This document shows, piece by piece, positions 1-28,823 of a stretch of 64,000 nt of DNA. Both the position numbers and the translations under genes were made by a program. This stretch comes from a virus. Position 1 is the stretch's first letter. Each line of letters starts with the position of its first letter. The DNA lies in the IMG/VR virus record IMGVR_UViG_3300046507_000113, positions 4,965-68,964 of that record. One strand, written 5' to 3'. The notes beneath the pieces are model-generated. The model was not told where the DNA came from, did not search any database, and was given only the letters and a program-made list of their open reading frames with translations.

Positions 1-2223
1 ACCGGGATTGACCAATGTCACCTGATTGATTACGCCACCGGTAACACCGGTAACTTGCAGGGTTGTGACTGTTCCTCCACTGGTCAATGTTCCACCAACA
101 ACAGTCAGTATATCATTCAGCGTATAGCCAGTACCACCAACGGTAACAGATGGTGTAGCAAGAGACTGTCCGATAGCCAAGGTACCGGGACCATTTGTGT
201 CTTCATCCCACCAGTATAGAAGCCTTGGTGCATCTCCCGGCATGCCACGTTTCATCATGGCAGTTCCGCCTACTGCTGTACGACTAGCCATCCCATAAGA
301 GATTCGGTCGGTCGTGATACCAGTGTAGGATGAGATCTTTGGAAGCCAACGACGAGTAGCACTATCGGTACCGGCAGTGTTATCACCAGAAGAGGTTGCC
401 AACTGGTTGTTAGCATTAGACTGTCCGACGAAGGGAACAAAATAGCGAGGTGCGTAAGTTGTATTCGAAGTGGAGTGACGAGACTGTTGATCGATAGCTA
501 CACGTTGTGCCTCTGTATCTGACATTGGCGTGGTAGTATACTGATAGATAATTACCTCTTTGATCGCACCATTGGCTGATGCACCTTGAAGTCCTGTAGC
601 TCCAATAACGAGACGCTGCGAATTGGCTGCAGTAATACCGTGTTCGCGATTGGAGAAGTGCTTACGTGTATCACCACCACCAGAGACCGTTGCACCCGAT
701 TGATTAAACCAGAGATTGGTGAAAGGGGTACCAACAGCTGGAGCAGCTTCATCCATAGAAAGCCATTCCGGACGACCATAAGCTGAGGCAGATCGACCGA
801 GACTATCCCTTGTAGGATCGAAGGTGAATACCTGCGCATTCGTGCTGGTCGCGGCAACAGGTGTTGCTCCCATAAGGATACCGGTTGACAGTGTGCCATA
901 ACCAAGCATACAAGAATGAGCAGAAGTAGTCGGAGTTCCCGGACGGGGCGAATACTGGTTGCCATAGCCATATCGAGCAGCGACGACAAAGACAGAAAGA
1001 TTAGCAGTACCACCGACATTCAGGAATGTGCTGGCCGTTGTCAGGTTAAGAGTAGCGGCAGTGTAATCGATTGACGGTACGGTGTTGTAGACATTCCCGG
1101 CATCGCCGGTGAGCGCCCATACAAAGGTAGCGCCAGAACCAGTACCACCGGTTACACCTGTAGCGTTACCGGTAGGAGACGGAGAGTGCTTATATTTGCC
1201 TGCCCTCGTAACGGTAATGCCGGTGATAGCCCCAGAAGAGACAGTAGCAACCGTGACCTGTGCCGTCAGGCCTCCGCTGTCTGCGATGATACCGCCAGTC
1301 GGGGTGAGAACATCGCCAACTGTATAGCCGGTGCCGGCAGCGGTAATGGACGGGGTGTTTACGAGCGTTGCAAAATTGCCGGGGAAGAATAGTGGTGGTC
1401 TAGACGAAGAGGTAGTGTCTCTTGTGTTGCCAGATTGATCATACCAAGTAGCCACAGTAAAGCTGATGCCGTCCCCGAAGCCTGACATTCCGGTCGTGTT
1501 CAGAGTTCCGTCGCCATTGAAGCCAATGGTTCGGAGAGTATTGGTGCTGTCTCGTACCTGAAAGCAGTTGCCAGCATATGCTGGATTGATTTTCGAGAAC
1601 GCGTAAATAGCAACAGGGGCTTGAGCCGTAGACATTGGACCGAGAGCAGCAAGAGAGCCTACGGTAATTGTGAACGGAGTGTCTTTAGTCCCGAGCGTCG
1701 GATGGACTTCTCGGAGTGTAATAGAGAAGGAACCAGAACTAGAAGCGGTGAGACCGACAACTAGATTAGAGAAGGTAGCATCAGGAACAACACGACCACT
1801 GGCAGACCGGATCTCAATACGAGAACCAGATGTCTTAGCTCCAATAGCACCGATTACTGTACCAGCATCAGCCCCCTGAGTAAAACTCGAAGAAGAGAGC
1901 GTGAGAGTTTGTAGTCCAGCAGGAGGAATACTTCCACCAAGTATAGTAGCCAAAGTGGCTGCACTAGCACCCGGAGAAATAAGATCGGAGAGACGACGGC
2001 CGGCATTGTTAGAAGTGCCTGCCAAAATCTCTGTCATTGAGGTAGCAAGAGCAGTTGAACTGGCACCTGCATAAATTAGGTTAGAAAGAATTTTAGTTTC
2101 AGGTGTTTGAACACCACTAGCAGCATTTGATATAATTGCAGAAAGTTCAGTAGAATCGGCTCCCGGAGAAACCAAATCTGCAAGGGTGTCTAGTGGCTTA
2201 TTACGAGTGGTTTCTCCGGCCAT
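1..2223 (-). CDS. Tail spike/fibre receptor-binding protein (3' end outside window), with lectin-like and putative carbohydrate esterase domains
   Basis: Not in the ORF track because it has no stop in the window. ATG at 2223, open to base 1 (MAGETTRNKPLDTLADLVSPGA...). G/T-rich repeats (GTGYTVGDVLT, GTGYTLNDILT), TWYDQSGN motif common in tail lectin domains, and FVGQSNA (GQSN motif of SASA/SGNH esterases). Confidence 0.7.
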   Translation of the reverse strand, partial: MAGETTRNKPLDTLADLVSPGADSTELSAIISNAASGVQTPETKILSNLIYAGASSTALATSMTEILAGTSNNAGRRLSDLISPGASAATLATILGGSIPPAGLQTLTLSSSSFTQGADAGTVIGAIGAKTSGSRIEIRSASGRVVPDATFSNLVVGLTASSSGSFSITLREVHPTLGTKDTPFTITVGSLAALGPMSTAQAPVAIYAFSKINPAYAGNCFQVRDSTNTLRTIGFNGDGTLNTTGMSGFGDGISFTVATWYDQSGNTRDTTSSSRPPLFFPGNFATLVNTPSITAAGTGYTVGDVLTPTGGIIADSGGLTAQVTVATVSSGAITGITVTRAGKYKHSPSPTGNATGVTGGTGSGATFVWALTGDAGNVYNTVPSIDYTAATLNLTTASTFLNVGGTANLSVFVVAARYGYGNQYSPRPGTPTTSAHSCMLGYGTLSTGILMGATPVAATSTNAQVFTFDPTRDSLGRSASAYGRPEWLSMDEAAPAVGTPFTNLWFNQSGATVSGGGDTRKHFSNREHGITAANSQRLVIGATGLQGASANGAIKEVIIYQYTTTPMSDTEAQRVAIDQQSRHSTSNTTYAPRYFVPFVGQSNANNQLATSSGDNTAGTDSATRRWLPKISSYTGITTDRISYGMASRTAVGGTAMMKRGMPGDAPRLLYWWDEDTNGPGTLAIGQSLATPSVTVGGTGYTLNDILTVVGGTLTSGGTVTTLQVTGVTGGVINQVTLVNPG

Positions 2224-2313
2224 TTACTTCTTCTTTCCAAGTTTCTTTTTGCTAGGGATGGACTGCTTTACAGTCTTCATCTTAGCGACTGCAGTATTGC
2301 AATTCTTACTCAT
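2224..2313 (-). CDS. Small basic hypothetical protein (29 aa)
   Basis: MSKNCNTAVAKMKTVKQSIPSKKKLGKKK; fills the gap exactly and is coupled to both neighbours. Confidence 0.45.
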   Translation of the reverse strand: MSKNCNTAVAKMKTVKQSIPSKKKLGKKK

Positions 2314-2587
2314 TATCTAGAGGATCCTCCATATTCATGAACATATTCATTAGAACAAATTTAGCTCGTTCGAGGTCCCAAAGAACCTTGGCAGGATCGC
2401 CTGAACTGGAAGCGAAATACATATTCTGTCGACCATGATAAGTACCAAGGACAACGATATCGTCAAACTCTCTGTCTTGCAGAGATGTCAGAACTTCAGA
2501 AACTTCAATAGAAGGACCGTACATAGCATCTTCGAGAAGGCTAAGATCAATATCTTCTGTACCAGGGAACTTGACGATGTTATCCAT
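2306..2587 (-). CDS. Hypothetical phage protein
   Basis: 93 aa ORF tightly coupled in the - strand packaging operon. Confidence 0.7.
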   Translation of the reverse strand: MDNIVKFPGTEDIDLSLLEDAMYGPSIEVSEVLTSLQDREFDDIVVLGTYHGRQNMYFASSSGDPAKVLWDLERAKFVLMNMFMNMEDPLDNE

Positions 2588-2931
2588 TATTTTTCTTCCT
2601 TATATACGTTAGGAACTTCCTTATGCTTGAAGAAAGGTACTTCGTCGTAGTTAGCACGAGAAGTCTTATCAAGCGTATCAGTAGCAGGATCTTTTGCGAC
2701 CCGACCCTGACCTGTTGCCCGAGACTTGTTAGCCTTACCGGGATTCCTTACAATGTTAGCAACTCTATCAGCAGGGGTACCACCCTTTTGGTAGGCAATT
2801 GCTTCATCTGAAATGAGACGATCTCCTGCCATTGCTTTGTTTCTCTGCTGTTGGACAGCCTGATACTTAGCATTAGCACTCGGATCACGAATGTCTTCAA
2901 TATTATCTGATTGTCTGCCTGTGCGTTTCAA
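2587..2931 (-). CDS. Hypothetical protein
   Basis: 114 aa, TTG start overlapping the terminase stop. Confidence 0.65.
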   Translation of the reverse strand: MKRTGRQSDNIEDIRDPSANAKYQAVQQQRNKAMAGDRLISDEAIAYQKGGTPADRVANIVRNPGKANKSRATGQGRVAKDPATDTLDKTSRANYDEVPFFKHKEVPNVYKEEK

Positions 2932-4889
2932 TATCCGAATACCTCGTCTGCGGGGTTGTAACGATAACTAGATTGTCTACCCCAATCCAAAGGAGATGAG
3001 GCACGAGGGCGAGACATGATCCCATAGCGAAGAGCGTCATAGCTGTGATCATTAGGGTATCTATCATCGATATCGTCTCCACCATCAGGGTCAGAAGGAA
3101 TAGAAGGAAGGTCTGAAATAACTTGTCTGCAATTCTCAAAGAACTTGATACTTGGTTCCATATCTCCAAAGTTGCGTTCTTTGACCTTTAGAAGCTCATG
3201 GAGACGGTTCTTACCAGCTTCGCGACTACCGGGGCCACGATCTGATGGACGCCACGAGCAGCCCGCTGCGATCATTTCTTCAGCTACTGTAGGACCCATG
3301 ATACCTCTCTGATGCCAGACAGAAGAGTCAAGAACACCATAAGAGATCTTCTCATTCTTCTCTAGCTCCAGAACTTTCTGGGCCATAGCAACACCAGTCA
3401 TGTTCGAAGCATAAAGCTCACGATATACATAAAGTGTTTCGTATTGCGGATCGATGGCAAACCAAAGAACACAAGAAGGTGATGCATAACCATAGTCAGC
3501 TGCCCTAAAGCGTCTCCAAGAATGGGGAATCTCAAAAGGCTTAACGACATGTTGTTTGACAGAAAACTCAGGGAAGGCTGCACCTTCAACAATAGACCAG
3601 TCACCTTCAAGAAGCTTACGCCTTTGATCTTCTGGCAAAGAGAGGAGGTTCTTCTCATAGTGACCAGATTCATAGAGGTAAGGATTATCTTTCAGGAGAG
3701 CAGGAATAAACTTCCTCTTAGAGAGGGGCTTACCTGCTTTAGTAGGGTCGAATTGTTTAGTGATAGGATCTTTATAGTCATCGGGATACAAAAGAACTTC
3801 ACCAGTATCAATGTCTGTAGCCCAGAACGCTTGACCTGCAGGAGCAGGATCAATGAACATCTTCTTAACCCAATGATGGCCGGGACCACCGGGGTTAGTC
3901 GTAGCTCTCATAGAGAGGTTCTTTTCCAATTCAGGATCAGAAGAACGAAGACGGGACTTAAGATAAAGATAAGCATGAGGAGTAGGATACTGTGTAAGTT
4001 CGTCTACACCGATCCAACAAAAACTCTGTCCCTGATAACGGAGAACGTCATCTTCTCTGTCTAGGTAAGTCATCCAGAATTTAGCTCCAGAAGGGAATAC
4101 CCACATGGAGTCTTGTTCTTTCCACTTAGCACCAGGAAAAGCTTTAGGGTAGAGCTTCTGACTTTCCCACTTTAGTTCTCGAAGTTCATCGTTAGTACGA
4201 CGCAACAACAAACCAACAAAGTTAGGATTATAGAAGTATCTCATAGGGTCGGCGAGCATAGCATATGACTTACCGCCTCCTGCACCACCCCCATAGAGCA
4301 CTTCCTCCTCTGTCGAGGACAAGAAAGATGTCTGAGGACCGGGATTAGGTGTAAAGACCCAATTAATATCTACACCCTTTAGGACGGGCGGCTTGAGTTT
4401 TCGGTCAGGATTATTAGGGAGGTTATTGGGAGGTAATTTAGGGACGGGCGGGCCGTCGGGGAAATCTTCAGGCTTAAGCTGGTTCTTCTTAGCTTCGACA
4501 TCTTGCTGAACCTTCCGTGCCCTTTTGGCAGCGAGAGTAGCTTGTCTCTTAGCTTCTGCAATCTTACGGGCATCCTTAGTAACTGGAGCCTTATTTCTTT
4601 TTGTCAGCTTATGCTTGGTGAATGGTTTGCGGTGGGAATTGTAGAGATTGGAAACAGTCTGATGGACCATACTCCGAAGAAGCTTCTGTTGGAGCCACTC
4701 ACATACCTCACGAAGAGAGGATCCAGCTTCCAAGTAATCAAAGCCCTGTTCGATGTAAGCCACCTGATCCAAGTCAGGGATAATATGGAGGGGGTCTTCA
4801 GGATCTACCTTATAGCCTACACCAACCTTACCGTAGGGAATCTTTCTGTACCAATCCTTCCACCGTTCTAGGGGAAGTTGATTACTCAT
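2928..4889 (-). CDS. terL: Terminase large subunit with N-terminal extension
   Basis: Walker A YGGGAGGGKS, Walker B WIGVDE, motif III ATTNPGGPGH, nuclease ADYG and NDHSYDALRYG. Confidence 0.95.
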   Translation of the reverse strand: MSNQLPLERWKDWYRKIPYGKVGVGYKVDPEDPLHIIPDLDQVAYIEQGFDYLEAGSSLREVCEWLQQKLLRSMVHQTVSNLYNSHRKPFTKHKLTKRNKAPVTKDARKIAEAKRQATLAAKRARKVQQDVEAKKNQLKPEDFPDGPPVPKLPPNNLPNNPDRKLKPPVLKGVDINWVFTPNPGPQTSFLSSTEEEVLYGGGAGGGKSYAMLADPMRYFYNPNFVGLLLRRTNDELRELKWESQKLYPKAFPGAKWKEQDSMWVFPSGAKFWMTYLDREDDVLRYQGQSFCWIGVDELTQYPTPHAYLYLKSRLRSSDPELEKNLSMRATTNPGGPGHHWVKKMFIDPAPAGQAFWATDIDTGEVLLYPDDYKDPITKQFDPTKAGKPLSKRKFIPALLKDNPYLYESGHYEKNLLSLPEDQRRKLLEGDWSIVEGAAFPEFSVKQHVVKPFEIPHSWRRFRAADYGYASPSCVLWFAIDPQYETLYVYRELYASNMTGVAMAQKVLELEKNEKISYGVLDSSVWHQRGIMGPTVAEEMIAAGCSWRPSDRGPGSREAGKNRLHELLKVKERNFGDMEPSIKFFENCRQVISDLPSIPSDPDGGDDIDDRYPNDHSYDALRYGIMSRPRASSPLDWGRQSSYRYNPADEVFGY

Positions 4890-5307
4890 GATCGATAATC
4901 TTTATATCCTCTGGGGAATCCTTGGGGGGAAGGATAAACATGTTCCTAACTTCTGTTACCTGAACAGCTTCTTCTTTGAAGACACCAGCCCTATCAAGAA
5001 TAGAGTTAGCAGCAGGGATGATATTCTTAACACCAATAGCATTGGGATCATGCAACACAGAAACAAGAGAATGAGCTGCCTTAGCAGATGAGGCAATAAG
5101 ATATTCCTTTGCCATATCCTTTATCTGCTTAGAGAACTTCTTGATCATGACAGAAGAAGGAATGCCTTTCATACCAGACTTGTCCATAGCAGTACGGACG
5201 TCCCCACCGCACTCATCAAATAGAATGTCGAGGAAGTTCTGTTCTTGAAGGGTTAGACCATCTTCATTAACGGTATCTTGTTTAAGTAATTCTTTAAGTT
5301 CACTCAA
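4882..5307 (-). CDS. Probable terminase small subunit
   Basis: Directly upstream of terL; TTG start with AAGGAG SD; helical protein with LTLQEQNFLD N-terminus and AANSILDRAG motif. Confidence 0.7.
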   Translation of the reverse strand: MSELKELLKQDTVNEDGLTLQEQNFLDILFDECGGDVRTAMDKSGMKGIPSSVMIKKFSKQIKDMAKEYLIASSAKAAHSLVSVLHDPNAIGVKNIIPAANSILDRAGVFKEEAVQVTEVRNMFILPPKDSPEDIKIIDHE

Positions 5308-10419: not shown

Positions 10420-10497
10420 GTGTCTAAGTGCAAGCATACCGAAAGCATTCTGGTATGGAGGAAAGCCGTCATGAATTAAGTTAGATCCGGAATTCAG

Positions 10498-10567
10498 GGT
10501 GTGAGCCCCTTAGTCGTCCGTTATCTTTGGGTGATAAAAATGGATGACAAACTCTCTTGTTCACACC
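10498..10567 (+). ncRNA. Y-RNA-like element 1 (short; apical loop UUUGGGU)
   Basis: Closing stem GGTGTGA/TCACACC; shared GAGCCC...GTTATC...CTTGTTCA; inner stem GTCGTCCG/TGGATGAC; hairpin TTATC-TTTGGGT-GATAA. Confidence 0.75.
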
Positions 10568-10584
10568 TCCCTTTAACGTAATAA

Positions 10585-10649
10585 CACTTGAGCCCCTGCC
10601 ATTGGGTTATCGGCTAAAATATATCCCATAGCACAACCTTGTTCAAGTG
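10585..10649 (+). ncRNA. Y-RNA-like element 2 (short)
   Basis: Closing stem CACTTGA/TCAAGTG; GAGCCC...GGTTATC...CCTTGTTCA; directly upstream of the Ro60 SD. Confidence 0.75.
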
Positions 10650-10669
10650 ACCTAATCTCACAGAAGGAA

Positions 10670-12232
10670 ATGGAAATGAGCCGCAATAATTATGCTTCAC
10701 TTGCTCGTGCCACACAGACGGACAAGGCTAAGGAAAATCAAGTCAAGAACAATGCAGGGGGCTATGTCTTCAAGCTCACCCCCATGAAACAGCTTGAGCG
10801 TTTCCTTATTCTTGGTTCTGATAGTAACACCTATTATCAGACTGCCCGTAAGCTCACCCGTGAGAATGCCCAAGTGGTCATTGCATGTTGGGCAGAGCAT
10901 CCACAAGAGACGCTTGATCTTATTGTTGAGATCTCTGACAAGGGCCGTGCCCCTAAGAACGATCCTGCTATCTTTGCGATGGCATTGGGTACGATGGCAG
11001 AAGACGTCAAGACAAGACAGTTGGTATATGCCAATCTCTATAGGGTGTGCCGTACCTCTACTCATTTGTTTATGTTTGTTGATAACTGCATGAGCTTGGA
11101 TAAGGGGTTTGGGCGGGGCCTCAAGAGGACCATTGCCAAGTTCTATGAGGAGAAGGACCTGAATGCTCTTGCTTTGCAGCTTGTCAAGTACAGGCAGCGC
11201 GAGGGATTCACCCATAATCGTCTCATTGATCTTTCTCACCCTAAGATGCGTGCTAACAGTAAGCACAACCTCATCCGTTGGGTTATCGGCAAGGACTTCG
11301 ATCCTGATGGCCTTCCTGAATTGGTTGATGGATTTATCAAGATCCAAGAGACACCTACTCTCAAGGTTCTCAAGGGTTATCCCATGCTACCTTGGGAAGC
11401 TTTGCCTACTGAGATGCTGAATGATCCCAATGTGTGGAAGCATCTTCTGCCCAATATGGGTATCACTGCCTTACTACGAAACCTGGGGAAGATGTCTGCC
11501 CTTGGTATCCTCAAGCCTCTCAGTGAATGGGAGGAGTTTGTTGTCCAGAAGTTCAAGGACAAAGCAGTAATAAGGCAGTCCCGACTGCATCCATTCAATA
11601 TCATGGTGGCTATGAAGACCTATTCTGCAGGTCATGGCTTCCGTGGTTCCAATACATGGCCGGTGAACAATCGGATTGTGAGTGCACTTGAGTATGCCTT
11701 CTATGCTGCATTCGATAACGTGGAACCCTCTGGTAAGCGTACACTCATTGGCCTTGATGTTTCTGGTTCTATGTCTTCAAAGATCTTGAACACGAATGTC
11801 TCATGCCGTGAGGCTGCCGGTGCGATGGCTATGGTCACATTCCAGAAGGAAGAACGGGCCTATTGTCATGGCTTCACGAACGTTTTCGTTGACCTTGGTA
11901 TTACTCCCCGTGATACTCTTGAAGAGGTTCAGAGGAAGATTTACAGAAGCAACTTCAGTAGCACCAATTGTTCGCTACCAATGGACTATGCAATGAGAGA
12001 GGGGCTGAATGTTGATCAGTTCGTTGTCTACACTGACAATGAGACGTATGCTGGTCGTACTCACCCCTTCCAAGCATTGAAGGATTACAGAAAGAAATCT
12101 GGCATTGATGCCAAGTTGGTTGTGGTCGGCATGACTTCCACCGGCTTCTCAATTGCTGATCCTTCTGATCCAGGTATGCTTGATGTGGTTGGCTTTGACA
12201 CGGCAGCACCTGCCCTAATCTCCAACTTCTAA
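10670..12232 (+). CDS. rsr: Ro60/Rsr TROVE-domain RNA-binding protein with C-terminal vWA domain
   Basis: NNAGGYVF, LERFLILG, KYRQREG, PWEALP, MGITALLRNLGKM, SRLHPF, MIDAS DVSGSM, YTDNET and GMLDVVGFD are characteristic Ro60 motifs. Confidence 0.95.
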   Translation: MEMSRNNYASLARATQTDKAKENQVKNNAGGYVFKLTPMKQLERFLILGSDSNTYYQTARKLTRENAQVVIACWAEHPQETLDLIVEISDKGRAPKNDPAIFAMALGTMAEDVKTRQLVYANLYRVCRTSTHLFMFVDNCMSLDKGFGRGLKRTIAKFYEEKDLNALALQLVKYRQREGFTHNRLIDLSHPKMRANSKHNLIRWVIGKDFDPDGLPELVDGFIKIQETPTLKVLKGYPMLPWEALPTEMLNDPNVWKHLLPNMGITALLRNLGKMSALGILKPLSEWEEFVVQKFKDKAVIRQSRLHPFNIMVAMKTYSAGHGFRGSNTWPVNNRIVSALEYAFYAAFDNVEPSGKRTLIGLDVSGSMSSKILNTNVSCREAAGAMAMVTFQKEERAYCHGFTNVFVDLGITPRDTLEEVQRKIYRSNFSSTNCSLPMDYAMREGLNVDQFVVYTDNETYAGRTHPFQALKDYRKKSGIDAKLVVVGMTSTGFSIADPSDPGMLDVVGFDTAAPALISNF

Positions 12233-12238
12233 TATAGT

Positions 12239-12304
12239 GGATGAGCCCAAGGTTTTAGGTTATCACTTTTAATGATCCTCCCTATTACCGTCCCTTGTTC
12301 ATCC
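12239..12304 (+). ncRNA. Y-RNA-like element 3 (short; apical loop CUUUUAA)
   Basis: GGATGA/TCATCC stem; GAGCCC...GGTTATC...CCTTGTTCA; hairpin ATCA-CTTTTAA-TGAT. Confidence 0.8.
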
Positions 12305-12314
12305 TCCTGAAATA

Positions 12315-12389
12315 CGAAGTGAGCCCAATATAACCGGTTATCTTTCCTGAAAATAGAGCAAACCCGGTTGTAACTCCTTGTTCACTTCG
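12315..12389 (+). ncRNA. Y-RNA-like element 4 (short; apical loop CUGAAAA)
   Basis: CGAAGTGA/TCACTTCG stem; TATAACCGG/CCGGTTGTA inner stem; same conserved motifs. Confidence 0.8.
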
Positions 12390-12397
12390 CAGCATTG

Positions 12398-12536
12398 GGT
12401 ACGAGCCCAATGAAATTCGGTTATCTTTTTGGGAAAGCGTAATCTAGGTTCGAATCCTAGTCCCCCGCCCATTTATGTGGGGGATCGTCTAATGGTAGGA
12501 CACGAAAACGTCGAGTTTCAAATCCTTGTTCGTACT
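12398..12536 (+). ncRNA. yrlA: YrlA-type Y RNA with circularly permuted tRNA-like domain (element 5)
   Basis: Ro-binding stem GTACGAGCCC...CTTGTTCGTAC enclosing, in order, T-arm CTAGG-TTCGAAT-CCTAG, loop-closed acceptor TCCCCCGC/GTGGGGGA and D-arm GTCT-AATGGTA-GGAC. Confidence 0.85.
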
Positions 12537-12546
12537 ACTGTAATTA

Positions 12547-12679
12547 CTGATGAGCCCATGCTTATCGTTTATCCCCAGCGTGTTATAGGTTCGAGTCCTA
12601 TCAAGCCAACATAGCGGTCTTGTAGCTCAATTGGTAGAGCATCCGGCAAAAACAACGATTAGCGATCCTAGTTCATCAG
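12547..12679 (+). ncRNA. yrlA: Second YrlA-type Y RNA (element 6)
   Basis: CTGATGAGCCC...CTAGTTCATCAG enclosing T-arm ATAGG-TTCGAGT-CCTAT, imperfect acceptor CAAGCC/GGTCTTG and D-arm GCTC-AATTGGTA-GAGC. Confidence 0.8.
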
Positions 12680-12714: not shown

Positions 12715-13104
12715 ATGAAGAAGGCATTCCTTTCTCTCGCGCTTGTGTCTGTTGCTGTACTTGCAGCATGTACTGATGCTGATATCGCCTCAAGCAATCT
12801 GTCCCAAGCGGCAGATAACTTTCAGGTCAATCGTCGTATCGTTGCCATCAACGGTATCACTGACAACTACCTCCTTGAGGTTGAGGGTCTTTGCTCTCTC
12901 GGCAATCAGGACAAGGCACGAGAGGTGTCTATCACCTGCAAGACTGGTCCGGGTCTATTCAAGAAGTTCTTTGTCGGACTGTCTGACAATGTGACCTATG
13001 TGGTTGAACAACTCGAACCCATGCCGGTGAACACCTATCGCTATAAGGTGACATTCAAACCGTCTGTCATCATTCCTGATGTTGATGTGAAGCTGGGGTT
13101 CTGA
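12715..13104 (+). CDS. Phage lipoprotein
   Basis: Likely start MKKAFLSLALVSVAVLAAC (lipobox) after AAGGGG SD. Confidence 0.8.
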   Translation: MKKAFLSLALVSVAVLAACTDADIASSNLSQAADNFQVNRRIVAINGITDNYLLEVEGLCSLGNQDKAREVSITCKTGPGLFKKFFVGLSDNVTYVVEQLEPMPVNTYRYKVTFKPSVIIPDVDVKLGF

Positions 13105-15560: not shown

Positions 15561-15801
15561 CTATGGATTACGTCGTTACATATCTCTTTGTAGGGTTTTT
15601 TGTTGCCTTGATTGGCTCTACTGTGCTTTTCATTCAGGGAAAAGATACTTCTTTGTCAGGATTTCTTCTTGACATTCTTCTTTGGCCTGTAGTCATCGGC
15701 TATTGGTGCTATTATGGGTGGCAGGATGATTGAGAAACTAATCTTGATCAGTGCCCTTGGTTTTCTAGGTTGGTATATTCTTTTTTGGAGTTAATAAGAT
15801 A

Positions 15802-16203
15802 ATGTTTGTCGCAGTTTATGGTACGCTTAAGCAGGGTTATGGTAACAATCGTCTCCTTGCTAATTCTACATTCGTTGGTGAGGGTACAGTAAGGGGCTAT
15901 AAGCTCTATCATGCTGGTTTCCCTGTCGCTTGTCCCGATGAGAATAGCACTATCTCTGTTGAACTGTGGGATATCGGTGACAGTAAGTCTACCTTGCAGT
16001 CTCTTGACTGGCTCGAAGGGTACGATGCAAACGAAAAAGACCCCGATCATAACAATATGTACAACCGCACTCCTGTCAAGGTGTTTACTGACAGTGGAAG
16101 TGTAGAAGCAAATATGTATGTCGGGGCCTCTGGATTTTGGAAAGATTTCGTCGGTATGAAGGAGTGTTCCATTGTACACGGAAGCTATAAATGGTCTAGG
16201 TGA
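15802..16203 (+). CDS. Gamma-glutamylcyclotransferase (AIG2/YtfP-like)
   Basis: FVAVYGTLKQGYGNN, LDWLEGY, YNR motifs. Confidence 0.9.
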   Translation: MFVAVYGTLKQGYGNNRLLANSTFVGEGTVRGYKLYHAGFPVACPDENSTISVELWDIGDSKSTLQSLDWLEGYDANEKDPDHNNMYNRTPVKVFTDSGSVEANMYVGASGFWKDFVGMKECSIVHGSYKWSR

Positions 16204-16456
16204 TGTTAAGGTAGGGGATACTATCTTTGTTCAAGACAGAGTTGACCCCCTAAAGATAAAGAGTTGGCAGTATCGGTATCTAGTTACTGAGGTAACCCCT
16301 AGTGGTATCGGTGTCTTATATAACTCCCTAGACGATCCCATTACAGCAGCTGGAACTATCGACAAAACAACCTTTGCTGTCCTACGTTGGGGTAGGGTAG
16401 TCGATGAACGTCCATATGATCCCTCACAGGAGCCTGATGCAGATGACGATGTTTAA
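16172..16456 (+). CDS. Small beta-rich protein with C-terminal tag (copy 1)
   Basis: TTG start with AAGGAG SD; VKVGDTIFV; ends RPYDPSQEPDADDDV. Confidence 0.8.
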   Translation: MYTEAINGLGDVKVGDTIFVQDRVDPLKIKSWQYRYLVTEVTPSGIGVLYNSLDDPITAAGTIDKTTFAVLRWGRVVDERPYDPSQEPDADDDV

Positions 16457-16643
16457 CAGAAAATTATATCTGAAAAGCATAGAAGCTACCAATAATGCAG
16501 ATGCTGTAGCTCAGAGTTCCATTGAGGGTCGTGCTCATCAGTGGAATAACTATCGTAGACTTATCCGTAATGGATACAGGAGTATTCATAGAGAGGTTAT
16601 GGAAACTAAGTACAACCCGTTGAAGGATGGAAAGAATGAATAA
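16449..16643 (+). CDS. Hypothetical protein
   Basis: ATG lies inside the tag-coding end of the previous gene. Confidence 0.55.
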   Translation: MFNRKLYLKSIEATNNADAVAQSSIEGRAHQWNNYRRLIRNGYRSIHREVMETKYNPLKDGKNE

Positions 16644-16992
16644 CCTATCTCTTATGCTTTACTTCGCAGATGTCGCAGAGAAGATTGCCAGTGCATTTAC
16701 TTTGATGACGTTGATATTCTTGTTTGCATCAATTGTGGGAACTATTATAGTCGTATCCACAAGAATAGAGTACTACGGAAAGCCCGCTCCAATGTGGATG
16801 GTTATTGTTCCGATTTTATTCCTATTCCTCTCCACACCCGGAGCGGTCCTCATTCCCTCTAAGAATACGATCTATTTGATCGCAGGATCGGAGATTGGTG
16901 AACAGGTGGTGAAGTCTCCCGAGGCACAGCAGATGTTCTCGGACATTCGGGAAGTCATCCAGCAGCAAATCAAAGAACTCAAGAAGGAATGA
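16636..16992 (+). CDS. Membrane protein
   Basis: Two TM helices, then LIPSKNTIYLIAGSE. Confidence 0.7.
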   Translation: MNNLSLMLYFADVAEKIASAFTLMTLIFLFASIVGTIIVVSTRIEYYGKPAPMWMVIVPILFLFLSTPGAVLIPSKNTIYLIAGSEIGEQVVKSPEAQQMFSDIREVIQQQIKELKKE

Positions 16993-16997
16993 TCGGT

Positions 16998-17153
16998 ATG
17001 GTTAAATACCGTATTCGTCCCTATTGGGGTATGTACGACTACAAGTTGGAACGAAAGTGTTTGTTCTTCTGGCGTACAGTCGGTAAGAGCGATTGCTACT
17101 ATGAACTCAAAGACCGTGTAGAAACCGTTGGTGGTTTCTTGGTGGAGGAATAA
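16998..17153 (+). CDS. Small protein, xKYRI family copy 1
   Basis: MVKYRIRPYWGMYDYKLERKCLFFWRTV...; 51 aa, below the ORF track cutoff. Confidence 0.6.
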   Translation: MVKYRIRPYWGMYDYKLERKCLFFWRTVGKSDCYYELKDRVETVGGFLVEE

Positions 17154-17155
17154 CG

Positions 17156-17434
17156 ATGGATAAGTACCGTATTGTACCCCATAAGATGGGACGCTGGGAA
17201 GTTCAGAAAGAATACAAGAGGTATGAAGGCCGATGGATGAGGTACGGTTTTCTGTATCTCAAGAAAAGATGGGTCGAGGATACTGAACCTTCTTACATTG
17301 GCTGGTCCACCATGTATGTAAATGATACTTGGGCTGTCTTTGACACCAAGAACGAAGCCTATGAGTGTATCAACAAGCTGAGGAGAGATGTGGCTCATAT
17401 GGAGACACCTCCAGAGGAGTATCCCCGTGGGTAA
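17156..17434 (+). CDS. Small protein, xKYRI family copy 2
   Basis: MDKYRIVPH...; GGAGG SD. Confidence 0.7.
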   Translation: MDKYRIVPHKMGRWEVQKEYKRYEGRWMRYGFLYLKKRWVEDTEPSYIGWSTMYVNDTWAVFDTKNEAYECINKLRRDVAHMETPPEEYPRG

Positions 17435-17705
17435 GTATCGTATTGTTACTACTTTCAGAAGGTCTCTTCATGGATCTCGTACTCAGTTCTATCTCTACTA
17501 TATTGTAGAGTTCAAGAAGTCTTGGTTCTCCGGGTGGACGGTTCTGAATACTACGATGGCATCTGATGGCTTCGAGTCCTCCAAGAAGTTCATTGAGGAA
17601 CACAAGAAGCTCAACCAACGTACCGTCGTCTACGAGGACCCTCAACCGAAAACAGTCCTCTCGAATGATGACTTATTGTACGGATCACAGAGGGAACAAC
17701 GATGA
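17427..17705 (+). CDS. Small protein, xKYRI family copy 3
   Basis: GTG start after GAGGAG: MGKYRIVTT...KKSWFSGW. Confidence 0.65.
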   Translation: MGKYRIVTTFRRSLHGSRTQFYLYYIVEFKKSWFSGWTVLNTTMASDGFESSKKFIEEHKKLNQRTVVYEDPQPKTVLSNDDLLYGSQREQR

Positions 17706-17911
17706 TCTTAATTGCGTGGTTGTTAATCGGGTACTTCTCCGGGCTTTTCCTCTTGGCCTTGTATCTCTATGACACAGGAAATAGGGCAGAGCTAGGTGAG
17801 GTAATCATTGGCTGTTCTTTTGGTGCTCTAGGTGGACCTGTTACACTGGTATTTGCTGTTGTAATAGTCCTTCCACAAGTCATCGTGAGAAACTGGAACA
17901 GGAAATTATAA
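17702..17911 (+). CDS. Small membrane protein
   Basis: Two hydrophobic helices; coupled. Confidence 0.6.
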   Translation: MILIAWLLIGYFSGLFLLALYLYDTGNRAELGEVIIGCSFGALGGPVTLVFAVVIVLPQVIVRNWNRKL

Positions 17912-18147
17912 TGGGACAGTTCGAAAAGAAAATCTTCACCAATCTCTATTGGAACACAAACAAGAAAGACTTGGTGATCATTGGTCAATATGGGACTGAG
18001 GCAAGGGCTATAGAGAAGATTAAGGATCCTGTCGCAGAGCCTACATTCATCTATCAGGACACCATTGGGGCCACCGTACTCTTTGAATACAACAAAGAGA
18101 TTGTGACAACACAGAAAAAGGAAGAGGAAAATGTTCCGGAAAGTTAA
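17911..18147 (+). CDS. Hypothetical protein
   Basis: TAATG-coupled. Confidence 0.6.
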   Translation: MGQFEKKIFTNLYWNTNKKDLVIIGQYGTEARAIEKIKDPVAEPTFIYQDTIGATVLFEYNKEIVTTQKKEEENVPES

Positions 18148-18421
18148 AGACTTCTTTACAGATTGCTTCAATAGTGTCAGTCCACAAGATGTACAACTCG
18201 GTGTAGTAGTTTGTATTCTAGGAGCTATGTTACTCTTCGCAGTGTTCCTATTGGGCGGTATCATCTATCAGAGCCCCATGGTGGCACTAGCTATCTTTGG
18301 TATAGTGCTTGCTGTCGTCGTCTTCGTGGCTTTGGTGTGGTTCTTTATGGGACTATACGTCAAGCTGACCCGTCCTCCTGTACAGCATTACGAAGATGTT
18401 TGGAACCTTCCTCCGGATTAA
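18131..18421 (+). CDS. Membrane protein
   Basis: Two TM helices; GAGG SD. Confidence 0.65.
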   Translation: MFRKVKDFFTDCFNSVSPQDVQLGVVVCILGAMLLFAVFLLGGIIYQSPMVALAIFGIVLAVVVFVALVWFFMGLYVKLTRPPVQHYEDVWNLPPD

Positions 18422-18571
18422 TTTATTGATCTACTGGACTGACCTTTCGAATACCTTAAGGACTTCTCTAATGGTTTCTCTATTGGGAAGTCCTTTAAAA
18501 GGTTTTATTTTAACTTCTTATTACTTAACTTCTGAACTTAGTATCTAATTGAGTTTCGATGTATGAGTTTA

Positions 18572-18600
18572 ATTATATCATATATTTTTCCATTTGTAAA
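18572..18600 (-). promoter_or_regulatory. Leftward (antisense) sigma70-type promoter
   Basis: On -: TTTACA-17 nt-TATAAT with extended TG, in an AT-rich intergenic gap. Confidence 0.6.
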
Positions 18601-18658
18601 CCCCTAGGGGGTATTTTTCTTTGTCACATCTCAAGATGGAAGTTCGAAAGGAGGGATC

Positions 18659-18967
18659 ATGACAGAAAGAACACTAGAAATTATTAAATCTTGGGAAGAT
18701 GTTCTACCGGGAGACCTTCTTATTTGGTCTGATAGTGATCTTGTGGTGGAATTCTCCAGTGTCGCTCAATACGGTTTCAGCGGTACAGTTCGAGGTGCTA
18801 ATGACCTTGACTATGAAGACGGTATGAATAGTGATACTTGGACCATGGAGACTTATAATCCTAATAAGCTGTACGATACCAATCTTGGATGGCGTAAGAT
18901 CGTTACTGGTCCTCCTGAACGTCCATATGATCCAAGCCAGGAACCTGACGATGAGGATGATGTATGA
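18659..18967 (+). CDS. Small protein with C-terminal tag (copy 2)
   Basis: AAGGAGG SD; VLPGDLLIW; ends RPYDPSQEPDDEDDV. Confidence 0.85.
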   Translation: MTERTLEIIKSWEDVLPGDLLIWSDSDLVVEFSSVAQYGFSGTVRGANDLDYEDGMNSDTWTMETYNPNKLYDTNLGWRKIVTGPPERPYDPSQEPDDEDDV

Positions 18968-19353
18968 ATACCGAATATAGTATTCGTAGTGTAACTGTGA
19001 CTCTCTTTAACCATGAGCATGGTTCTTGTGTAGGAACTCATCTCCCAGGTACTGGTGAGGTAGTCCACTTGGCCAACTCCTATATCACTCATCAACAAAG
19101 AGGTAAGGGATTGGGGTCTCAGTACCATCAGGAACGTCTCAACCATTTGATCGATGACGAGAAGGTGACACTTGTTACTTGTATCATCCGAATGGATAAC
19201 GAGCCACAGGTGAAGATCCTCAAGAAAAATGGATGGAAGTTCCTCCATGAATTCAACAGTATGTACAATGAACCTCTTTGTCTCTGTGTTAGAGATGTGA
19301 GGGTAGTGGAGTACGATCCTAACCAACAGCCTGATGGGGATGAAGACGTATGA
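18964..19353 (+). CDS. GNAT acetyltransferase with C-terminal tag (copy 3)
   Basis: Acetyl-CoA motif QQRGKGLG and DNEPQVKILKKNGW; ends YDPNQQPDGDEDV. Confidence 0.8.
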   Translation: MNTEYSIRSVTVTLFNHEHGSCVGTHLPGTGEVVHLANSYITHQQRGKGLGSQYHQERLNHLIDDEKVTLVTCIIRMDNEPQVKILKKNGWKFLHEFNSMYNEPLCLCVRDVRVVEYDPNQQPDGDEDV

Positions 19354-19577
19354 AAGTCTGGGTGCTTGAAGAAGTTAACGAAGGCTACTGGACTAATTAC
19401 AAGATCTTCCGAGAAGATCATCCCCCATCATCACTGCGTATCATGGAAGTGATCCAACAATGGGGTTATTCTCTAAAATATGCTGGTGGAGTGGCCGATC
19501 ACCTAGAACAACAAAATAAGTGGGATGATACATTTGAGGGTGTTCATATCTCACTTAAGTTGGTGGAGATAGAATGA
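19350..19577 (+). CDS. Hypothetical protein
   Basis: ATGA-coupled. Confidence 0.6.
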   Translation: MKVWVLEEVNEGYWTNYKIFREDHPPSSLRIMEVIQQWGYSLKYAGGVADHLEQQNKWDDTFEGVHISLKLVEIE

Positions 19578-19721
19578 GCATCCATTATTATGACTATGTG
19601 GACCCTGATAGGGTATTGCAGAACACAGCAGAGTTTCTTGCCAGACCTCCACAAAAGAGATCGTTGAAAGTTACCTCCAACAATGGGGGTTTTCCATTTA
19701 AAGTAGTAAGAGAGAAATAAT

Positions 19722-20447
19722 ATGTCAGTTATTACTGCCAATGTCGTGCCCACTACCTGTACTGCTGTCCTCCTTACTGGATGGGCCGAGGTTGAATTTG
19801 AGTTTGGTAAGGGTACAGGAAATAACCGTAAGACTAACGTCAAGAAGGAACTCAAGTTCGTCAAGGATCTCATCGAAGGTAGTTTCTATCGGTCTCACAA
19901 GATGATCCATGCCTTCATTACCAATGAGGAGATCGAGAACTATCGCACTGATAAGCTTCTCACTAAGCTTGGTTTCGAGTTGGTCTTCGAGGGTCCTTGG
20001 ACAGGTAAAACCTTCCCACAAGGTAATGCATCTGACAGGCTCTACTCTAATAGGGATGAACAGAGGCACGAAGAGACAGGTAGCCTCTTCCTTTGGGCAT
20101 GTACCCCTGAGAAGTATCAGGAATCTCTTGAAAACTTCAAGAAGGAACTCGAAGCAGAACTTCTTCAGATTGATCCTCCCAAGAAACCTGATCCTGCTCG
20201 TCTCGCCATGCCTGAGTTGAAGAAGACCGGACTCATTAAGAGCGGCATCATTGCAGAGAATTCCTATGTTGACAACGGTATCCATGCCGTCCTGAAGGTT
20301 ACTCCTGAAGTAGCCTACCGACATATTAAACTCACGTATGGTATTGATATCAAGAAGTGGAAGAATTACGGAGATGGTTGGACTAAGATTACTATCAGAC
20401 AGCTCAAAGAAGCCCACACTGCTTGGAAAGAAGAACCGGTCGTATGA
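19722..20447 (+). CDS. Hypothetical protein
   Basis: 241 aa with phage-like codon usage. Confidence 0.75.
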   Translation: MSVITANVVPTTCTAVLLTGWAEVEFEFGKGTGNNRKTNVKKELKFVKDLIEGSFYRSHKMIHAFITNEEIENYRTDKLLTKLGFELVFEGPWTGKTFPQGNASDRLYSNRDEQRHEETGSLFLWACTPEKYQESLENFKKELEAELLQIDPPKKPDPARLAMPELKKTGLIKSGIIAENSYVDNGIHAVLKVTPEVAYRHIKLTYGIDIKKWKNYGDGWTKITIRQLKEAHTAWKEEPVV

Positions 20448-21285
20448 GGTTGTACCTCTAACTCTAAATGATCCTCAACAGAAGTGGCTCTTCCCCAGGA
20501 ATGTGACTGGTAGGTTCTGCTATAAGGATAATGGTAGATGGAATAATTGGGAGTCCTCTACTTGCCATTCTCCGGTCCGTCAGCTGCTTTCTGGTCTGAC
20601 TGGCTTGGTGAGTACCCTGTGCAAGGTAAACCCTCTCACAAACAAATGGTGGGACTTTCTGGCCATATCTAATCCGGTATATAGGGAACTCTTTGAAGTG
20701 CCCGGTTGGAAGGTGATGGCTGATGCTTCTGGTCAGTATCATATGTTCTCCATGCCAGCAGAAGTGTTCAAGCTTCCTGTCCCTAGGATGCTGCTCTATG
20801 CCTTCTTGATTGATAGTAGAGTACCATTTGATCCTGCTGGTGGTGGTACTGAGAGGGTTAAGACTTGGGATCTTCTTGTTAGTCTTGGTGTTGAACCAAC
20901 CCTTGCCCACCTGATGTCAGTACACTTCAATGTCATGGAAGATAAACTCTACTTGACAGGTATGCAGTGGAACGGTGCCCATCAGGTCCTCAATGACAAT
21001 TGGCATTACGGTACGATGCGGACTGATTTCTCCATGTATCTTCGAGGTGAGTACCGGACTGATGGGGAACCTGACGAGAAACTTCTAACTTCTCAGCTTT
21101 GGTTCTCTAAGAGTGGTAAATCCGATAAACACGTTATACTTGGAAGTAATGATCTTAAGGACCTCACCAAAGAGAAGTCTGTGGGATCGTGGTCAAAAAG
21201 TTACTACATAGATCTTGACAGTGTCCCGGAGGTTGTTGAGATCTACAAGAAGAGAATTGAAGAAAGAAGGAAGTTTATACAATGA
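20338..21285 (+). CDS. Hypothetical protein (start uncertain)
   Basis: Long ORF coupled to the amidotransferase; possibly a distant paralog of 21918..22916. Confidence 0.7.
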   Translation: MVLISRSGRITEMVGLRLLSDSSKKPTLLGKKNRSYEVVPLTLNDPQQKWLFPRNVTGRFCYKDNGRWNNWESSTCHSPVRQLLSGLTGLVSTLCKVNPLTNKWWDFLAISNPVYRELFEVPGWKVMADASGQYHMFSMPAEVFKLPVPRMLLYAFLIDSRVPFDPAGGGTERVKTWDLLVSLGVEPTLAHLMSVHFNVMEDKLYLTGMQWNGAHQVLNDNWHYGTMRTDFSMYLRGEYRTDGEPDEKLLTSQLWFSKSGKSDKHVILGSNDLKDLTKEKSVGSWSKSYYIDLDSVPEVVEIYKKRIEERRKFIQ

Positions 21286-21908: not shown

Positions 21909-21917
21909 GGCACTAAA

Positions 21918-22916: not shown

Positions 22917-23146
22917 AAGTCAAAGTGTGGACTCTTATTGTAGACAATGGTGACGGATCTTCTTCTGCACATCAGTTCAAGAATGCACAAGAGATCAAGG
23001 ATCATCTGGAAGAAGATGCTGATGAAGATTTCAGTGTCGGTCTGGAAGAAATCACTGATGGGGCTACTATCTTCGATCAGTACGACTATCCTTGTGAAGT
23101 TTCGGTAGGTATCTTTGATACTGATGGTTATGAGGTAGTTGAATAA
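22913..23146 (+). CDS. Small acidic hypothetical protein
   Basis: DNGDGSSS motif; coupled on both sides. Confidence 0.7.
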   Translation: MKVKVWTLIVDNGDGSSSAHQFKNAQEIKDHLEEDADEDFSVGLEEITDGATIFDQYDYPCEVSVGIFDTDGYEVVE

Positions 23147-24238: not shown

Positions 24239-24253
24239 CAAAAGGAAATAGCC

Positions 24254-26061: not shown

Positions 26062-26065
26062 AGGT

Positions 26066-28010: not shown

Positions 28011-28025
28011 TCGTAGGAGATTGAA

Positions 28026-28805: not shown

Positions 28806-28823
28806 TATTACGAAAGATATACT

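Follow-up and report, generated by a model that had tools for sequence, protein, structure and literature searches.

The stretch of DNA analysed here, hereafter the window, comprises 64,000 nucleotides (nt) and corresponds to bases 4965–68964 of the 68,964-bp virus record IMGVR_UViG_3300046507_000113 (IMG/VR), which has direct terminal repeats and is rated complete. It encodes an orthologue of Ro60 (Rsr), around whose gene lie six elements, E1–E6, all on the + strand and each no more than 450 nt from the Ro60 open reading frame, two upstream (E1 and E2) and four downstream (E3–E6); the coordinates are collected in Table 1. Judged by their sequence, these elements are Y RNAs of the YrlA/YrlB kind and are presumed to be bound by Ro60. 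The subject of this report is the hairpin that follows their conserved GUUAUC motif, the V stem-loop, which in this clade resembles a tRNA anticodon arm in shape and sequence signature: 4–5 pairs, C or U at position 32, U33, three bases NNN, A or G at position 37 and mostly A38.

The six elements share a common plan. The outer part is a closing helix ending in GAGC on the 5′ side and in GUUC, as GUUCA or GUUCG, on the 3′ side. Next come unpaired bases, CC(C/A) in the 5′ strand and CCUU in the 3′ strand, and then a second stem; at the top, GUUAUC (UUUAUC in E6) stands directly after the 5′ strand of the second stem and leads into a variable apical module. The 5′ motif GAGCCCC or GAGCCCA is present in all six. 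E1–E4 are short forms without T arm and D arm, and E5 and E6 are long, YrlA-like forms in which a T arm (of the GGTTCGAATCC type), a closed acceptor-like stem-loop and a D arm follow one another, as in the circularly permuted tRNA-like domain of YrlA. The RNAfold z-scores of the whole elements range from −2.0 to −4.2 (that of E4 was obtained on a shortened stretch ending at 12382); E1 has a folding energy of −26.3 kcal/mol and a z-score of −4.23, and the 7-nt loop is present in the minimum-free-energy structures of E1 and E3. Elements with a closing stem of at least 4 pairs are confined in the 64 kb to E1–E6, five other matches to the pattern, all within coding sequence, being taken as spurious; four of these five have 3-pair closing stems and one (38848–39031, − strand) has 6 pairs.

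The hairpins were assessed by a fixed rule, which demanded a 7-nt loop of the type Y-U-NNN-R-N with three or more contiguous closing pairs, starting 5–12 nt after the start of NTTAYC. E1, E3 and E5 pass it, with five, four and three pairs, respectively; at a pass rate of 0.033 per element in dinucleotide shuffles, the binomial probability of three or more passes among six elements is 6.7 × 10−4. A preliminary description of this DNA had placed anticodon-like hairpins in E1, E3, E4 and E5, and all four lie where it put them. Its statement that each loop has U33 and a purine at position 37 holds for E1, E3 and E5 under the fixed rule; in E4 the same register requires a mismatched closing pair (C12346/T12354), and the four pairs beyond the mismatch, one of them G-U, enclose 9 nt. 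E2 and E6, for which no clear loop had been reported, indeed have no hairpin after the motif. In E5, U12428 can also pair with A12434, leaving a 5-nt loop, and the segment between the end of the hairpin and the T stem (12438–12443) is read as a 4-nt variable loop preceded by two stem positions that are unpaired.

The same loop pattern was then looked for in the relatives of the window. The viral set consisted of the best 80 of 429 Ro60 loci, 40–53% identical to the window Ro60, and the bacterial set of the best 80 of 107 Ro60 loci on bacterial genome contigs, 36–51% identical to it; each locus was taken with a 2.5 kb flank per side. A scan of viral contigs with the single protein gave no relative, whereas an alignment-based scan did recover relatives. 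Elements were located with a home-made finder requiring G[AGT]G[CT]C[GC] on the 5′ side, NTTAYC 8–40 nt further on, a closing helix of at least 7 pairs and a second stem with four or more. The finder returned 148 candidates in the viral set together with the window and 153 in the bacterial set; after identical post-motif segments had been entered only once, 144 and 148 distinct segments remained, 292 in total. Loops containing TTCGA or TTCAA, i.e., T loops, were left out, and the baseline was given by 200 dinucleotide shuffles per set, with the loop closed by at least three pairs right after NTTAYC.

Y-U-NNN-R-N loops were found in 66 of the 292 elements, compared with about 8.3 in the shuffles. 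The excess is present in all four classes: 12/45 viral long forms (shuffle mean 1.67), 20/99 viral short forms (3.10), 21/58 bacterial long forms (1.99) and 13/90 bacterial short forms (1.58). With the stricter pattern Y-U-NNN-A-A the counts in the same order are 9, 10, 15 and 8 versus 0.29, 0.86, 0.28 and 0.45, and the mirror pattern used as a control shows no excess (1, 1, 0 and 2 versus 1.2–2.1 per set; 4 versus about 6.1 in total). The 66 signature-bearing elements contain 43 distinct loops, the commonest triplets being GUU (9), GCU (6) and UGG, UUG, CAU and UCU (4 each). Thus, the survey of homologous arrays that the preliminary description had proposed comes out in its favour as regards both enrichment and differences between phages. 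The anticodon-like look of the window hairpins is real and exceeds chance in the window and in the family.

A length of 7 nt is modal among viral hairpins with at least 4 pairs (51 hairpins, versus 26, 28, 26, 36 and 43 for loops of 4, 5, 6, 8 and 9 nt), and most of the 9-nt class consists of 7-nt loops whose closing pair has opened. It is also modal among bacterial hairpins with at least 4 pairs (45 versus 16–31 for other lengths). The 51 viral heptaloops have C or U at position 1 in 41 cases, U at position 2 in 30, A at position 6 in 30 and A at position 7 in 33, with positions 3–5 close to even; no such base pattern is seen in the viral loops of 4, 5, 6 and 8 nt.

Positions 34 and 38 (tRNA numbering) are left free by the selection rule and can be compared with 317 tRNAs called by ARAGORN at the same loci, the three loci from the genome of the window itself (L001, L002 and L083) being excluded. 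At position 34, the 43 distinct loops have A 4, C 7, G 17 and U 15, and the tRNAs A 18, C 96, G 119 and U 84; A34 is depleted in the loops (binomial p = 0.009 against 0.25). At position 38, the loops have A 26, C 10, G 2 and U 5, and the tRNAs A 212, C 69, G 13 and U 23. The commonest combination at positions 36 and 37 is U36-A37 (34 of the 66 elements). G37 accompanies G36 in 6 of 12 loops versus 4 of 31 otherwise (Fisher p = 0.017), an association that runs in the direction of the m1G37 rule.

In the long forms, the hairpin can be placed in the register of a tRNA. When 48 viral long forms are right-aligned on the T stem, they form two groups, one without room for a hairpin (6–22 nt between motif and T stem), which includes E6, and one in which this distance clusters at 23–26 nt. 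The spacing at which the family clusters, 23–25 nt, corresponds to 3 + 5 + 7 + 5 + 5 and offers room for an anticodon arm and a 5-nt variable loop; in the hairpin-bearing forms AGGUC is a frequent variable loop. Position 15 of the D loop and the base just ahead of the T stem covary as in the Levitt pair (G:C 38, A:U 15, A:C 2, G:U 0, counted in the 58 of 103 long forms that the parser could read); E5 and E6 both have A15:U48. This covariation identifies the base before the T stem as position 48 and the hairpin as positions 27–43. A class-II variable arm would be followed by only one or two bases.

Compensatory changes were examined in all 20 long forms with exactly 25 nt from the motif to the T stem, which align without gaps, using a model of GUU, a 5-pair stem, a 7-nt loop, a 5-nt variable loop and the T arm. 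The loop-proximal pairs change in a compensatory manner (30-40: GC 11, CG 3, UA 2; 31-39: AU 7, CG 6, GC 4, UA 1), and the covariation score of 0.502, which none of 500 shuffles reaches, exceeds the shuffle mean of 0.153 as well as the scores for slid partners (at most 0.105). The four stem pairs other than 27-43 form in 70–90% of these sequences.

It should be noted that several observations weigh against this reading. Pair 27-43 is an A-G mismatch in 19 of the 20 long forms, so that the stem has 4 pairs and not 5. RNAfold favours in E5 another, longer hairpin with a 3-nt loop, and on isolated segments it often favours other registers; as 35 of the 144 isolated post-motif segments, including those of E3 and E4, remain unfolded, such folding is a weak guide. 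In the solved structure of Salmonella YrlA, as far as the available part of Wang 2018 (bioRxiv 312249) describes it, the helix leading toward Ro60 occupies the place of the anticodon stem, and the hairpin in the hairpin-bearing forms might instead stick out like a variable arm.

A re-ordering of the long forms into tRNA order was tried as additional support for the arm and was rejected. Parsing was possible for 36 of the 62 long forms with 22–26-nt spacing; ARAGORN gave a readable anticodon for 22 of them in a first count and for 33/36 in a looser one, E5 being called tRNA-Pro(tgg). With the hairpin part shuffled, ARAGORN still called about 31 of 36, and E5 in 30 of 30 trials; with this part deleted, it called none. 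Calls that survive shuffling and disappear on deletion show only that the spacing is correct.

The survey has its own limits, which count on the same side. Judging from the window itself, about 5 spurious matches are expected per 128 kb, so perhaps a tenth of the candidates is noise that weakens any signal. Related loci are not independent samples, and the p-values are therefore indicative only. Sliding the pattern by one base likewise gives raised counts for the viral sets (8 and 9 versus 1.3 and 2.5), which means that U-richness on the 5′ side of the loop accounts for some of the viral signal; in bacterial long forms the slid pattern is not raised (2 versus 1.5). The signature is carried by only 66 of the 292 candidates (23%), and many relatives have tetraloops (AGUG, CCAU), loops of 5, 6, 8 or 9 nt, or no hairpin. 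The fixed 7-nt loop assumed earlier did not survive the comparison: the nearest look-alikes of E1 have 6-nt loops (UUUGGC in L081 and CUUGGC in L056), those of E4 mostly have A-rich CUUGAAAA(A) loops of 8–9 nt (L008, L025 and L053), and other relatives have tetraloop hairpins such as GUUAUC-AGUG-GAUGAC (L004, L006 and L007). The class of E3, GUUAUCA-CUNNUAA-UGAU, does recur (CUGUUAA in L036 and L008, CUCCUAA in L037), and E4-like hairpins with 7-nt loops exist (CUGAAAA, CUGGAAA and CUUGAAA, in L135, L136 and L163). The signature is retained although the Ro60 proteins of these loci are only 36–53% identical to that of the window, and the short forms keep it on a conserved UUAUC/GAUAA stem though they lack the other tRNA parts.

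Among cultured actinophages, the loci of Sixama, Sparky, Starbow and Pleione were inspected. In Sparky, GUUAUC occurs together with a hairpin, AGGUC and a T arm, and there is an additional element of the GUUAUCACUUUGGGAUGAUC type; the Y loci of Sixama and Starbow are irregular, and no GUUAUC element was seen downstream of Ro60 in Pleione. Being too few and too varied, these four loci were kept out of the statistics.

The signature is not specific to phages: 34 of the 148 elements on bacterial contigs carry it, and the signature of the bacterial set is at least as strong as that of the viral set. Four signature-bearing bacterial loci have ordinary cellular neighbours: a chloride channel and a GGDEF-EAL protein (L099), a lyase and an M20 peptidase (L112), fumarase and glutathionylspermidine synthase (L148), and DivIC (L094). 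A signature present at chromosomal loci is not a phage invention. In 13 of the 28 bacterial loci with anticodon-like loops there is no tRNA gene nearby, and RtcB is not found beside the Ro60 locus in five bacterial genomes. Some of the "bacterial" loci may be prophages; L084 has the same sequence as the viral locus L008. Overall, the anticodon-like V loop is probably old and selected, and ancestral to the Y RNAs that this Ro60 clade has in phages and in bacteria.

Two loci, the viral contig L008 and the scaffold L084 of Bradyrhizobium sp. C9, have identical Y-element sequences at the same locus coordinates and share the GAGCCC 5′ motif with the window; this variant may mark a Bradyrhizobium-associated lineage.

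In the relatives, the Ro60/Y RNA cluster often lies inside same-strand arrays of tRNA genes, with up to 14 genes per 6.5 kb. The largest Y array, upstream of Ro60 at 150–2520 of L037, has 13 candidate elements in a row, in which short forms, permuted-tRNA forms and normal-order-tRNA forms are mixed. In some Y scaffolds (L037 709–844, L025 4491–4631 and L009 1083–1218), a tRNA body in normal, unpermuted order, with a D arm, a full anticodon arm (e.g., UCCGA-UUUGUAA-UCGGA), AGGUC and a T arm, is placed after GUUAUC and ahead of the 3′ strand of stem 2; within the L025 element ARAGORN calls tRNA-Ile(gat). E5 of the window has an additional mini-hairpin, CG-AAAA-CG (12503–12510), past the D arm and ahead of the 3′ strand of stem 2, at the site where the dimeric-tRNA model of Y RNA origin would put the anticodon arm of the second tRNA.

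Much of this anatomy is already known. According to the parts of Chen 2014 (PMC4201824) available to us, YrlA RNAs have a conserved YUAY at which the "V loop" starts; since GUUAUC contains UUAU and the hairpin comes next, the window hairpin is the V stem-loop of YrlA and not a new element. Y RNAs beside Ro60 are a known kind of RNA and the V hairpin is a named feature. The elements resemble YrlA (RF02553) in adjoining Ro60 on the same strand, well inside the distance of about 4 kb used as a criterion, in having a closing helix with a presumed Ro60-binding 5′ strand, and in the UUAU of GUUAUC (E1–E5) and of UUUAUC (E6), which fits YUAY and is followed by a V stem-loop in many members. They also share the T arm, the closed acceptor-like stem-loop, the D arm and the covarying Levitt pair, seen in E5 (12444–12501) and E6 (12585–12640).

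They differ from YrlA in the 5′ motif, GAGCCC(C/A) in the window in place of the GNCGAAN0-1G of YrlA, the presumed Ro60 contact; relatives of the same architecture have GGGCCGAAG, GGGUCGNN and similar 5′ motifs. At gathering thresholds, Rfam finds nothing in the window: the YrlA model gives 34.6 bits (E = 3.2 × 10−5) for E6, versus a gathering score of 69, and no match to E5 at E ≤ 10. The third difference is that V here reads as an anticodon arm plus a 5-nt variable loop, whereas the literature, in the parts available, treats it as a variable arm. The solved Salmonella YrlA domain is described as having no anticodon loop (Wang 2018, bioRxiv 312249, available passages), in agreement with what the preliminary description had said of classical YrlA, and "anticodon" is used in the available text of Chen 2014 (PMC4201824) only for Yrn1 of D. 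radiodurans. The passages of the literature searched do not describe V as anticodon-arm-like, and an earlier mention elsewhere is possible. What is apparently new is the V hairpin as an anticodon-arm look-alike in tRNA register, in phages and bacteria alike.

The short forms E1–E4 resemble the YrlB/Yrn2-type RNAs as presented in the same passages of Chen 2014: they are second Y RNAs accompanying a tRNA-like one in the same cluster, long hairpins with a small apical loop started by a pyrimidine. Unlike that type, there are four of them here instead of one, all have GUUAUC, and two or three are capped by a 7-nt anticodon-like loop. The Thermus phage phiLo likewise has a Ro60 with Y-like RNAs, Yrl1 and Yrl2, just upstream (Nucleic Acids Research 2025, PMC12135203); for this Ro60, RNA binding has been shown and a complex with host PNPase reported. 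The phiLo RNAs, unlike those of the window, were defined through a CGAA motif together with their stem-bulge-stem shape; the excerpts of that paper contain no tRNA-like or anticodon-like part, and the word "anticodon" occurs 0 times in its text.

The hairpin further resembles the anticodon stem-loop of tRNAs and of tRNA-like structures that include an anticodon mimic, such as that of turnip yellow mosaic virus (named in Wang 2018), with a 7-nt loop, U33, a purine at 37 and mostly A38; as in the tRNA arm, A34 is rare and a stem of 4–5 pairs is followed by a variable loop and a T arm. In contrast to tRNA, the Y elements have no free CCA end and have the 27-43 A-G mismatch, there is no ARAGORN call in the window, and the Rfam tRNA model reaches only 16–18 bits versus a threshold of 29. 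Phage tRNAs that evade anticodon nucleases, considered in van den Berg et al. 2023 (PMC10264068) in the context of tRNA-cutting defences, are similar in being tRNA-shaped, and phage tRNAs adjoin the Ro60/Y arrays in many relatives of the window. Such tRNAs are functional and selected to resist cleavage, whereas the Y RNAs, which cannot decode, would act, if at all, by binding.

The pentamer UUAUC at the six motif positions listed in Table 1 is also the loop pentamer of nematode stem-bulge RNAs and vertebrate Y RNAs, in which it is conserved and functionally needed (PMC4726728, in part). There, too, it starts the loop domain just above the stem; on the other hand, the eukaryotic motif is tied to DNA replication activity, and the same passages call the bacterial Y RNAs non-homologous to the vertebrate clades. 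The Rfam model of the nematode stem-bulge RNA aligns weakly to E2 via UGGGUUAUC (E = 2.5). On sequence similarity, the match could be due to deep conservation or to convergence.

Other genes of the window specify a large terminase, a DNA polymerase of family A, a primase-helicase, ThyX and a ribonucleotide reductase. Among sequencing runs, only one rhizosphere metagenome, possibly the source itself, matches the stretch over its full length, and none of the runs listed for it is an RNA run. The closest Ro proteins of cultured phages, those of Gordonia, Mycobacterium, Streptomyces and Microbacterium, are at most 46.5% identical to the window Ro60, and metagenomic relatives reach 67%; blastn matches of the locus to cultured phages are confined to the interior of the Ro60 gene. 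No tRNA gene is called by ARAGORN, either in the window or in genome bases 1–5200, hence none in the whole phage genome, and the Rfam tRNA matches in the window score 16–17.8 bits. RtcB and RNA ligase families have no match among the phage genes.

The gene directly 3′ of the Y array matches Phage_VG64 and phrog_478 (labelled recombination directionality factor), two labels not obviously in agreement, and the start of its product resembles a lipoprotein signal (…LAAC…). A cluster of peptide-ligation-type genes occupies about 15800–29000 (+). The nucleotidyltransferase at 36261–37040 resembles the PolyA_pol head only below threshold (17–18 bits versus 23). Given that the M. smegmatis YrlA receives an added CCA, according to a source available in part, it would be intriguing to meet an enzyme of the CCA-adding kind in a phage that has no tRNA genes.

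Table 1. Coordinates of the Y elements, the Ro60 gene and other features of the window
Feature	Position	Strand	Details
E1, short	10497–10568	+	Closing stem 10497–10506/10559–10568; GAGCCCC 10503–10509; stem 2 10513–10519/10543–10549
E1 apical part		+	GUUAUC 10520–10525; hairpin UUAUC-UUUGGGU-GAUAA 10521–10537 (stem 10521–10525/10533–10537, five perfect pairs; loop 10526–10532)
E2, short	10585–10649	+	GAGCCCC 10590–10596; GUUAUC 10606–10611; A/U-rich apical loop; RNAfold z −2.02
Ro60 (Rsr) orthologue	10670–12232	+	520 aa; Pfam vWA_Ro60 2.1e-63, TROVE 2.5e-36
E3, short	12239–12304	+	GAGCCCA 12243–12249; GUUAUC 12259–12264; hairpin AUCA-CUUUUAA-UGAU 12262–12276 (stem 12262–12265/12273–12276, four pairs; loop 12266–12272); RNAfold z −3.18
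E4, short	12315–12389	+	GAGCCCA 12321–12327; GUUAUC 12337–12342; A-rich apical loop with CUGAAAA 12347–12353
E5, long, YrlA-like	12398–12536	+	GAGCCCA 12403–12409; stem 2 12411–12419/12512–12519; GUUAUC 12420–12425; RNAfold z −3.01
E5 hairpin and arms		+	CUU-UUUGGGA-AAG 12425–12437 (stem 12425–12427/12435–12437, three pairs; loop 12428–12434); T arm 12444–12460; D arm 12487–12501
E5 closed acceptor-like stem	12461–12468/12477–12484	+	
E6, long, YrlA-like, no V hairpin	12547–12679	+	GAGCCCA 12552–12558; UUUAUC 12568–12573; RNAfold z −2.22
E6 arms		+	T arm 12585–12601; acceptor-like stem ~12602–12622; D arm 12625–12640
Gene directly 3′ of the Y array	12715–13104	+	Pfam Phage_VG64 4.8e-50; phrog_478
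GGACT cyclotransferase	15802–16203	+	Peptide-ligation-type cluster
Peptidase_C26	21282–21908	+	Peptide-ligation-type cluster
phiEco32-like COOH-NH2 ligase	23146–23985	+	Peptide-ligation-type cluster
Glutamine amidotransferase-like protein	24254–25345	+	Peptide-ligation-type cluster
Amidoligase	26692–27726	+	Peptide-ligation-type cluster
Nucleotidyltransferase	36261–37040	+	259 aa; phrog_1614 1.9e-21

From these data we propose the following model. Each element consists of a closing helix with a presumed Ro60-binding strand, a second stem and the YUAY motif, followed by a variable apical module, which is the V stem-loop in E1, E3, E5 and, loosely, E4. Where a class-I variable loop and the T arm come after the hairpin, as in E5 and other long forms, the RNA is collinear with a tRNA that has a loop closing its acceptor stem and is opened between positions 26 and 27, at the exit point of the Ro60-binding stem. 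The phage Ro60 would bind the RNAs through the closing helix, as holds, to our knowledge, in every Ro60 system studied. The apical end may then serve as an effector-binding site, and a loop that folds as its sequence suggests would show an anticodon-like surface to modification enzymes or anticodon nucleases. As an outcome, such proteins might be held on Ro60 together with any nuclease recruited to it, or the loops might compete with real tRNAs.

That the loop is read by a protein recognising anticodon loops in general is the reading towards which we lean, with considerable reserve. It is suggested by positions 32, 33, 37 and 38 being kept and A34 being avoided across divergent loci, and also in short forms free of the tRNA part. 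As to the partner, anticodon nucleases are the more interesting guess. [quoted passage not shown] The bolder proposition that Y RNAs are display scaffolds for anticodon loops, with which Ro60 captures or neutralises anticodon-specific enzymes, above all tRNA-cutting toxins and defence nucleases, appears improbable to us at present.

The hairpin may also be a relic that is not read at all. If Y RNAs arose from tRNA genes, as in the dimeric-tRNA model (Wang 2018, bioRxiv 312249, discussion, available in part), the old anticodon arm could have been kept as a stable U-turn cap, and the collinearity of hairpin, variable loop, T arm, acceptor and D arm with tRNA is what such a descent would leave, as are the unpermuted tRNA bodies enclosed by some Y scaffolds (L037, L025 and L009), the Y arrays within tRNA gene arrays in many relatives, and the many members in which the hairpin is lost or its loop altered in length. 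However, at 36–53% Ro60 identity a neutral remnant should have decayed, and yet the four loop positions are kept and A34 is avoided while positions 34–36 vary. Moreover, the loop of the short forms sits on a conserved, family-specific UUAUC/GAUAA stem that is the stem of no single tRNA, which favours diversification on a scaffold over repeated capture. We consider such a relic unlikely, while giving it some weight.

A narrower proposal, which formed the core of the preliminary description, is that anticodon stem-loops stabilised by the phage Ro60 soak up host anticodon nucleases (PrrC, PARIS AriB, colicin-like or VapC-like) and so protect the translation of host or phage while infection proceeds. 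As an idea it is not wholly new, given the suggestion already made for YrlA (Hughes 2020, PMC7790460, in part), and both this suggestion and the reported action of a phage Ro60-like protein against Ppl (PMC11482910, in part) speak for it. The loops are anticodon-like and differ between phages. The E3 loop CUUUUAA with its A-U closing pair is what we take to be the anticodon loop sequence of bacterial tRNA-Lys(UUU). The phage has no tRNA genes, RtcB or RNA ligase, i.e., neither of the two known tRNA counter-measures, so that a counter-measure of the binding type would not be redundant, although this argument is circumstantial. Against a decoy role stand the same loops in chromosomal bacterial Ro60 loci with housekeeping neighbours, which indicate that the feature did not originate as phage counter-defence. 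The triplet UGG occurs twice among the window loops, which is odd for a panel of decoys; stems of 3–4 pairs with unmodified loops are possibly poor nuclease substrates; and the commonest triplets have no clear focus on known nuclease targets. This role for the loops is therefore doubtful.

Loops of the YUNR type, in which a U-turn prepares pairing with another RNA (a tRNA anticodon loop or an mRNA), would agree with U as the commonest base at loop position 2 (30 of 51 viral heptaloops) and with central positions that vary as in a specificity element; such kissing loops were rejected as very improbable, because only 17 of the 43 distinct loops have a purine at loop position 4 (tRNA position 35), and because neither the conserved A-A at 37-38 nor the avoidance of A34 is predicted for a pairing loop, while both suit an anticodon loop. 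Finally, over-reading of short hairpins with flexible boundaries picked by eye, which the mismatch needed in E4, the three pairs and alternative folds of E5 and the reader-chosen loop boundaries might suggest, can hardly explain three passes of a fixed rule among six elements, a family excess (66 versus about 8.3) with a flat mirror control, and the covariation of the stem.

Taken together, these results bear on a gap in the biology of bacterial Y RNAs, the interactors of whose tRNA-like end are stated to be unknown in the available passages of Chen 2014 (PMC4201824). If V is an anticodon-arm mimic, the candidate partners narrow to the t6A, i6A, m1G37 and queuosine enzymes, the anticodon nucleases and perhaps the synthetases, and Ro60 with its Y RNAs would be linked mechanistically to the tRNA-damage response of Salmonella, with which it is co-regulated, and to phage counter-defence. 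If the loops are inert relics, the outcome would be a modest refinement of the YrlA model. Should the Y RNAs prove to be display scaffolds, the long-missing effector of YrlA would be an anticodon-reading protein, and phages would use the same device as counter-defence.

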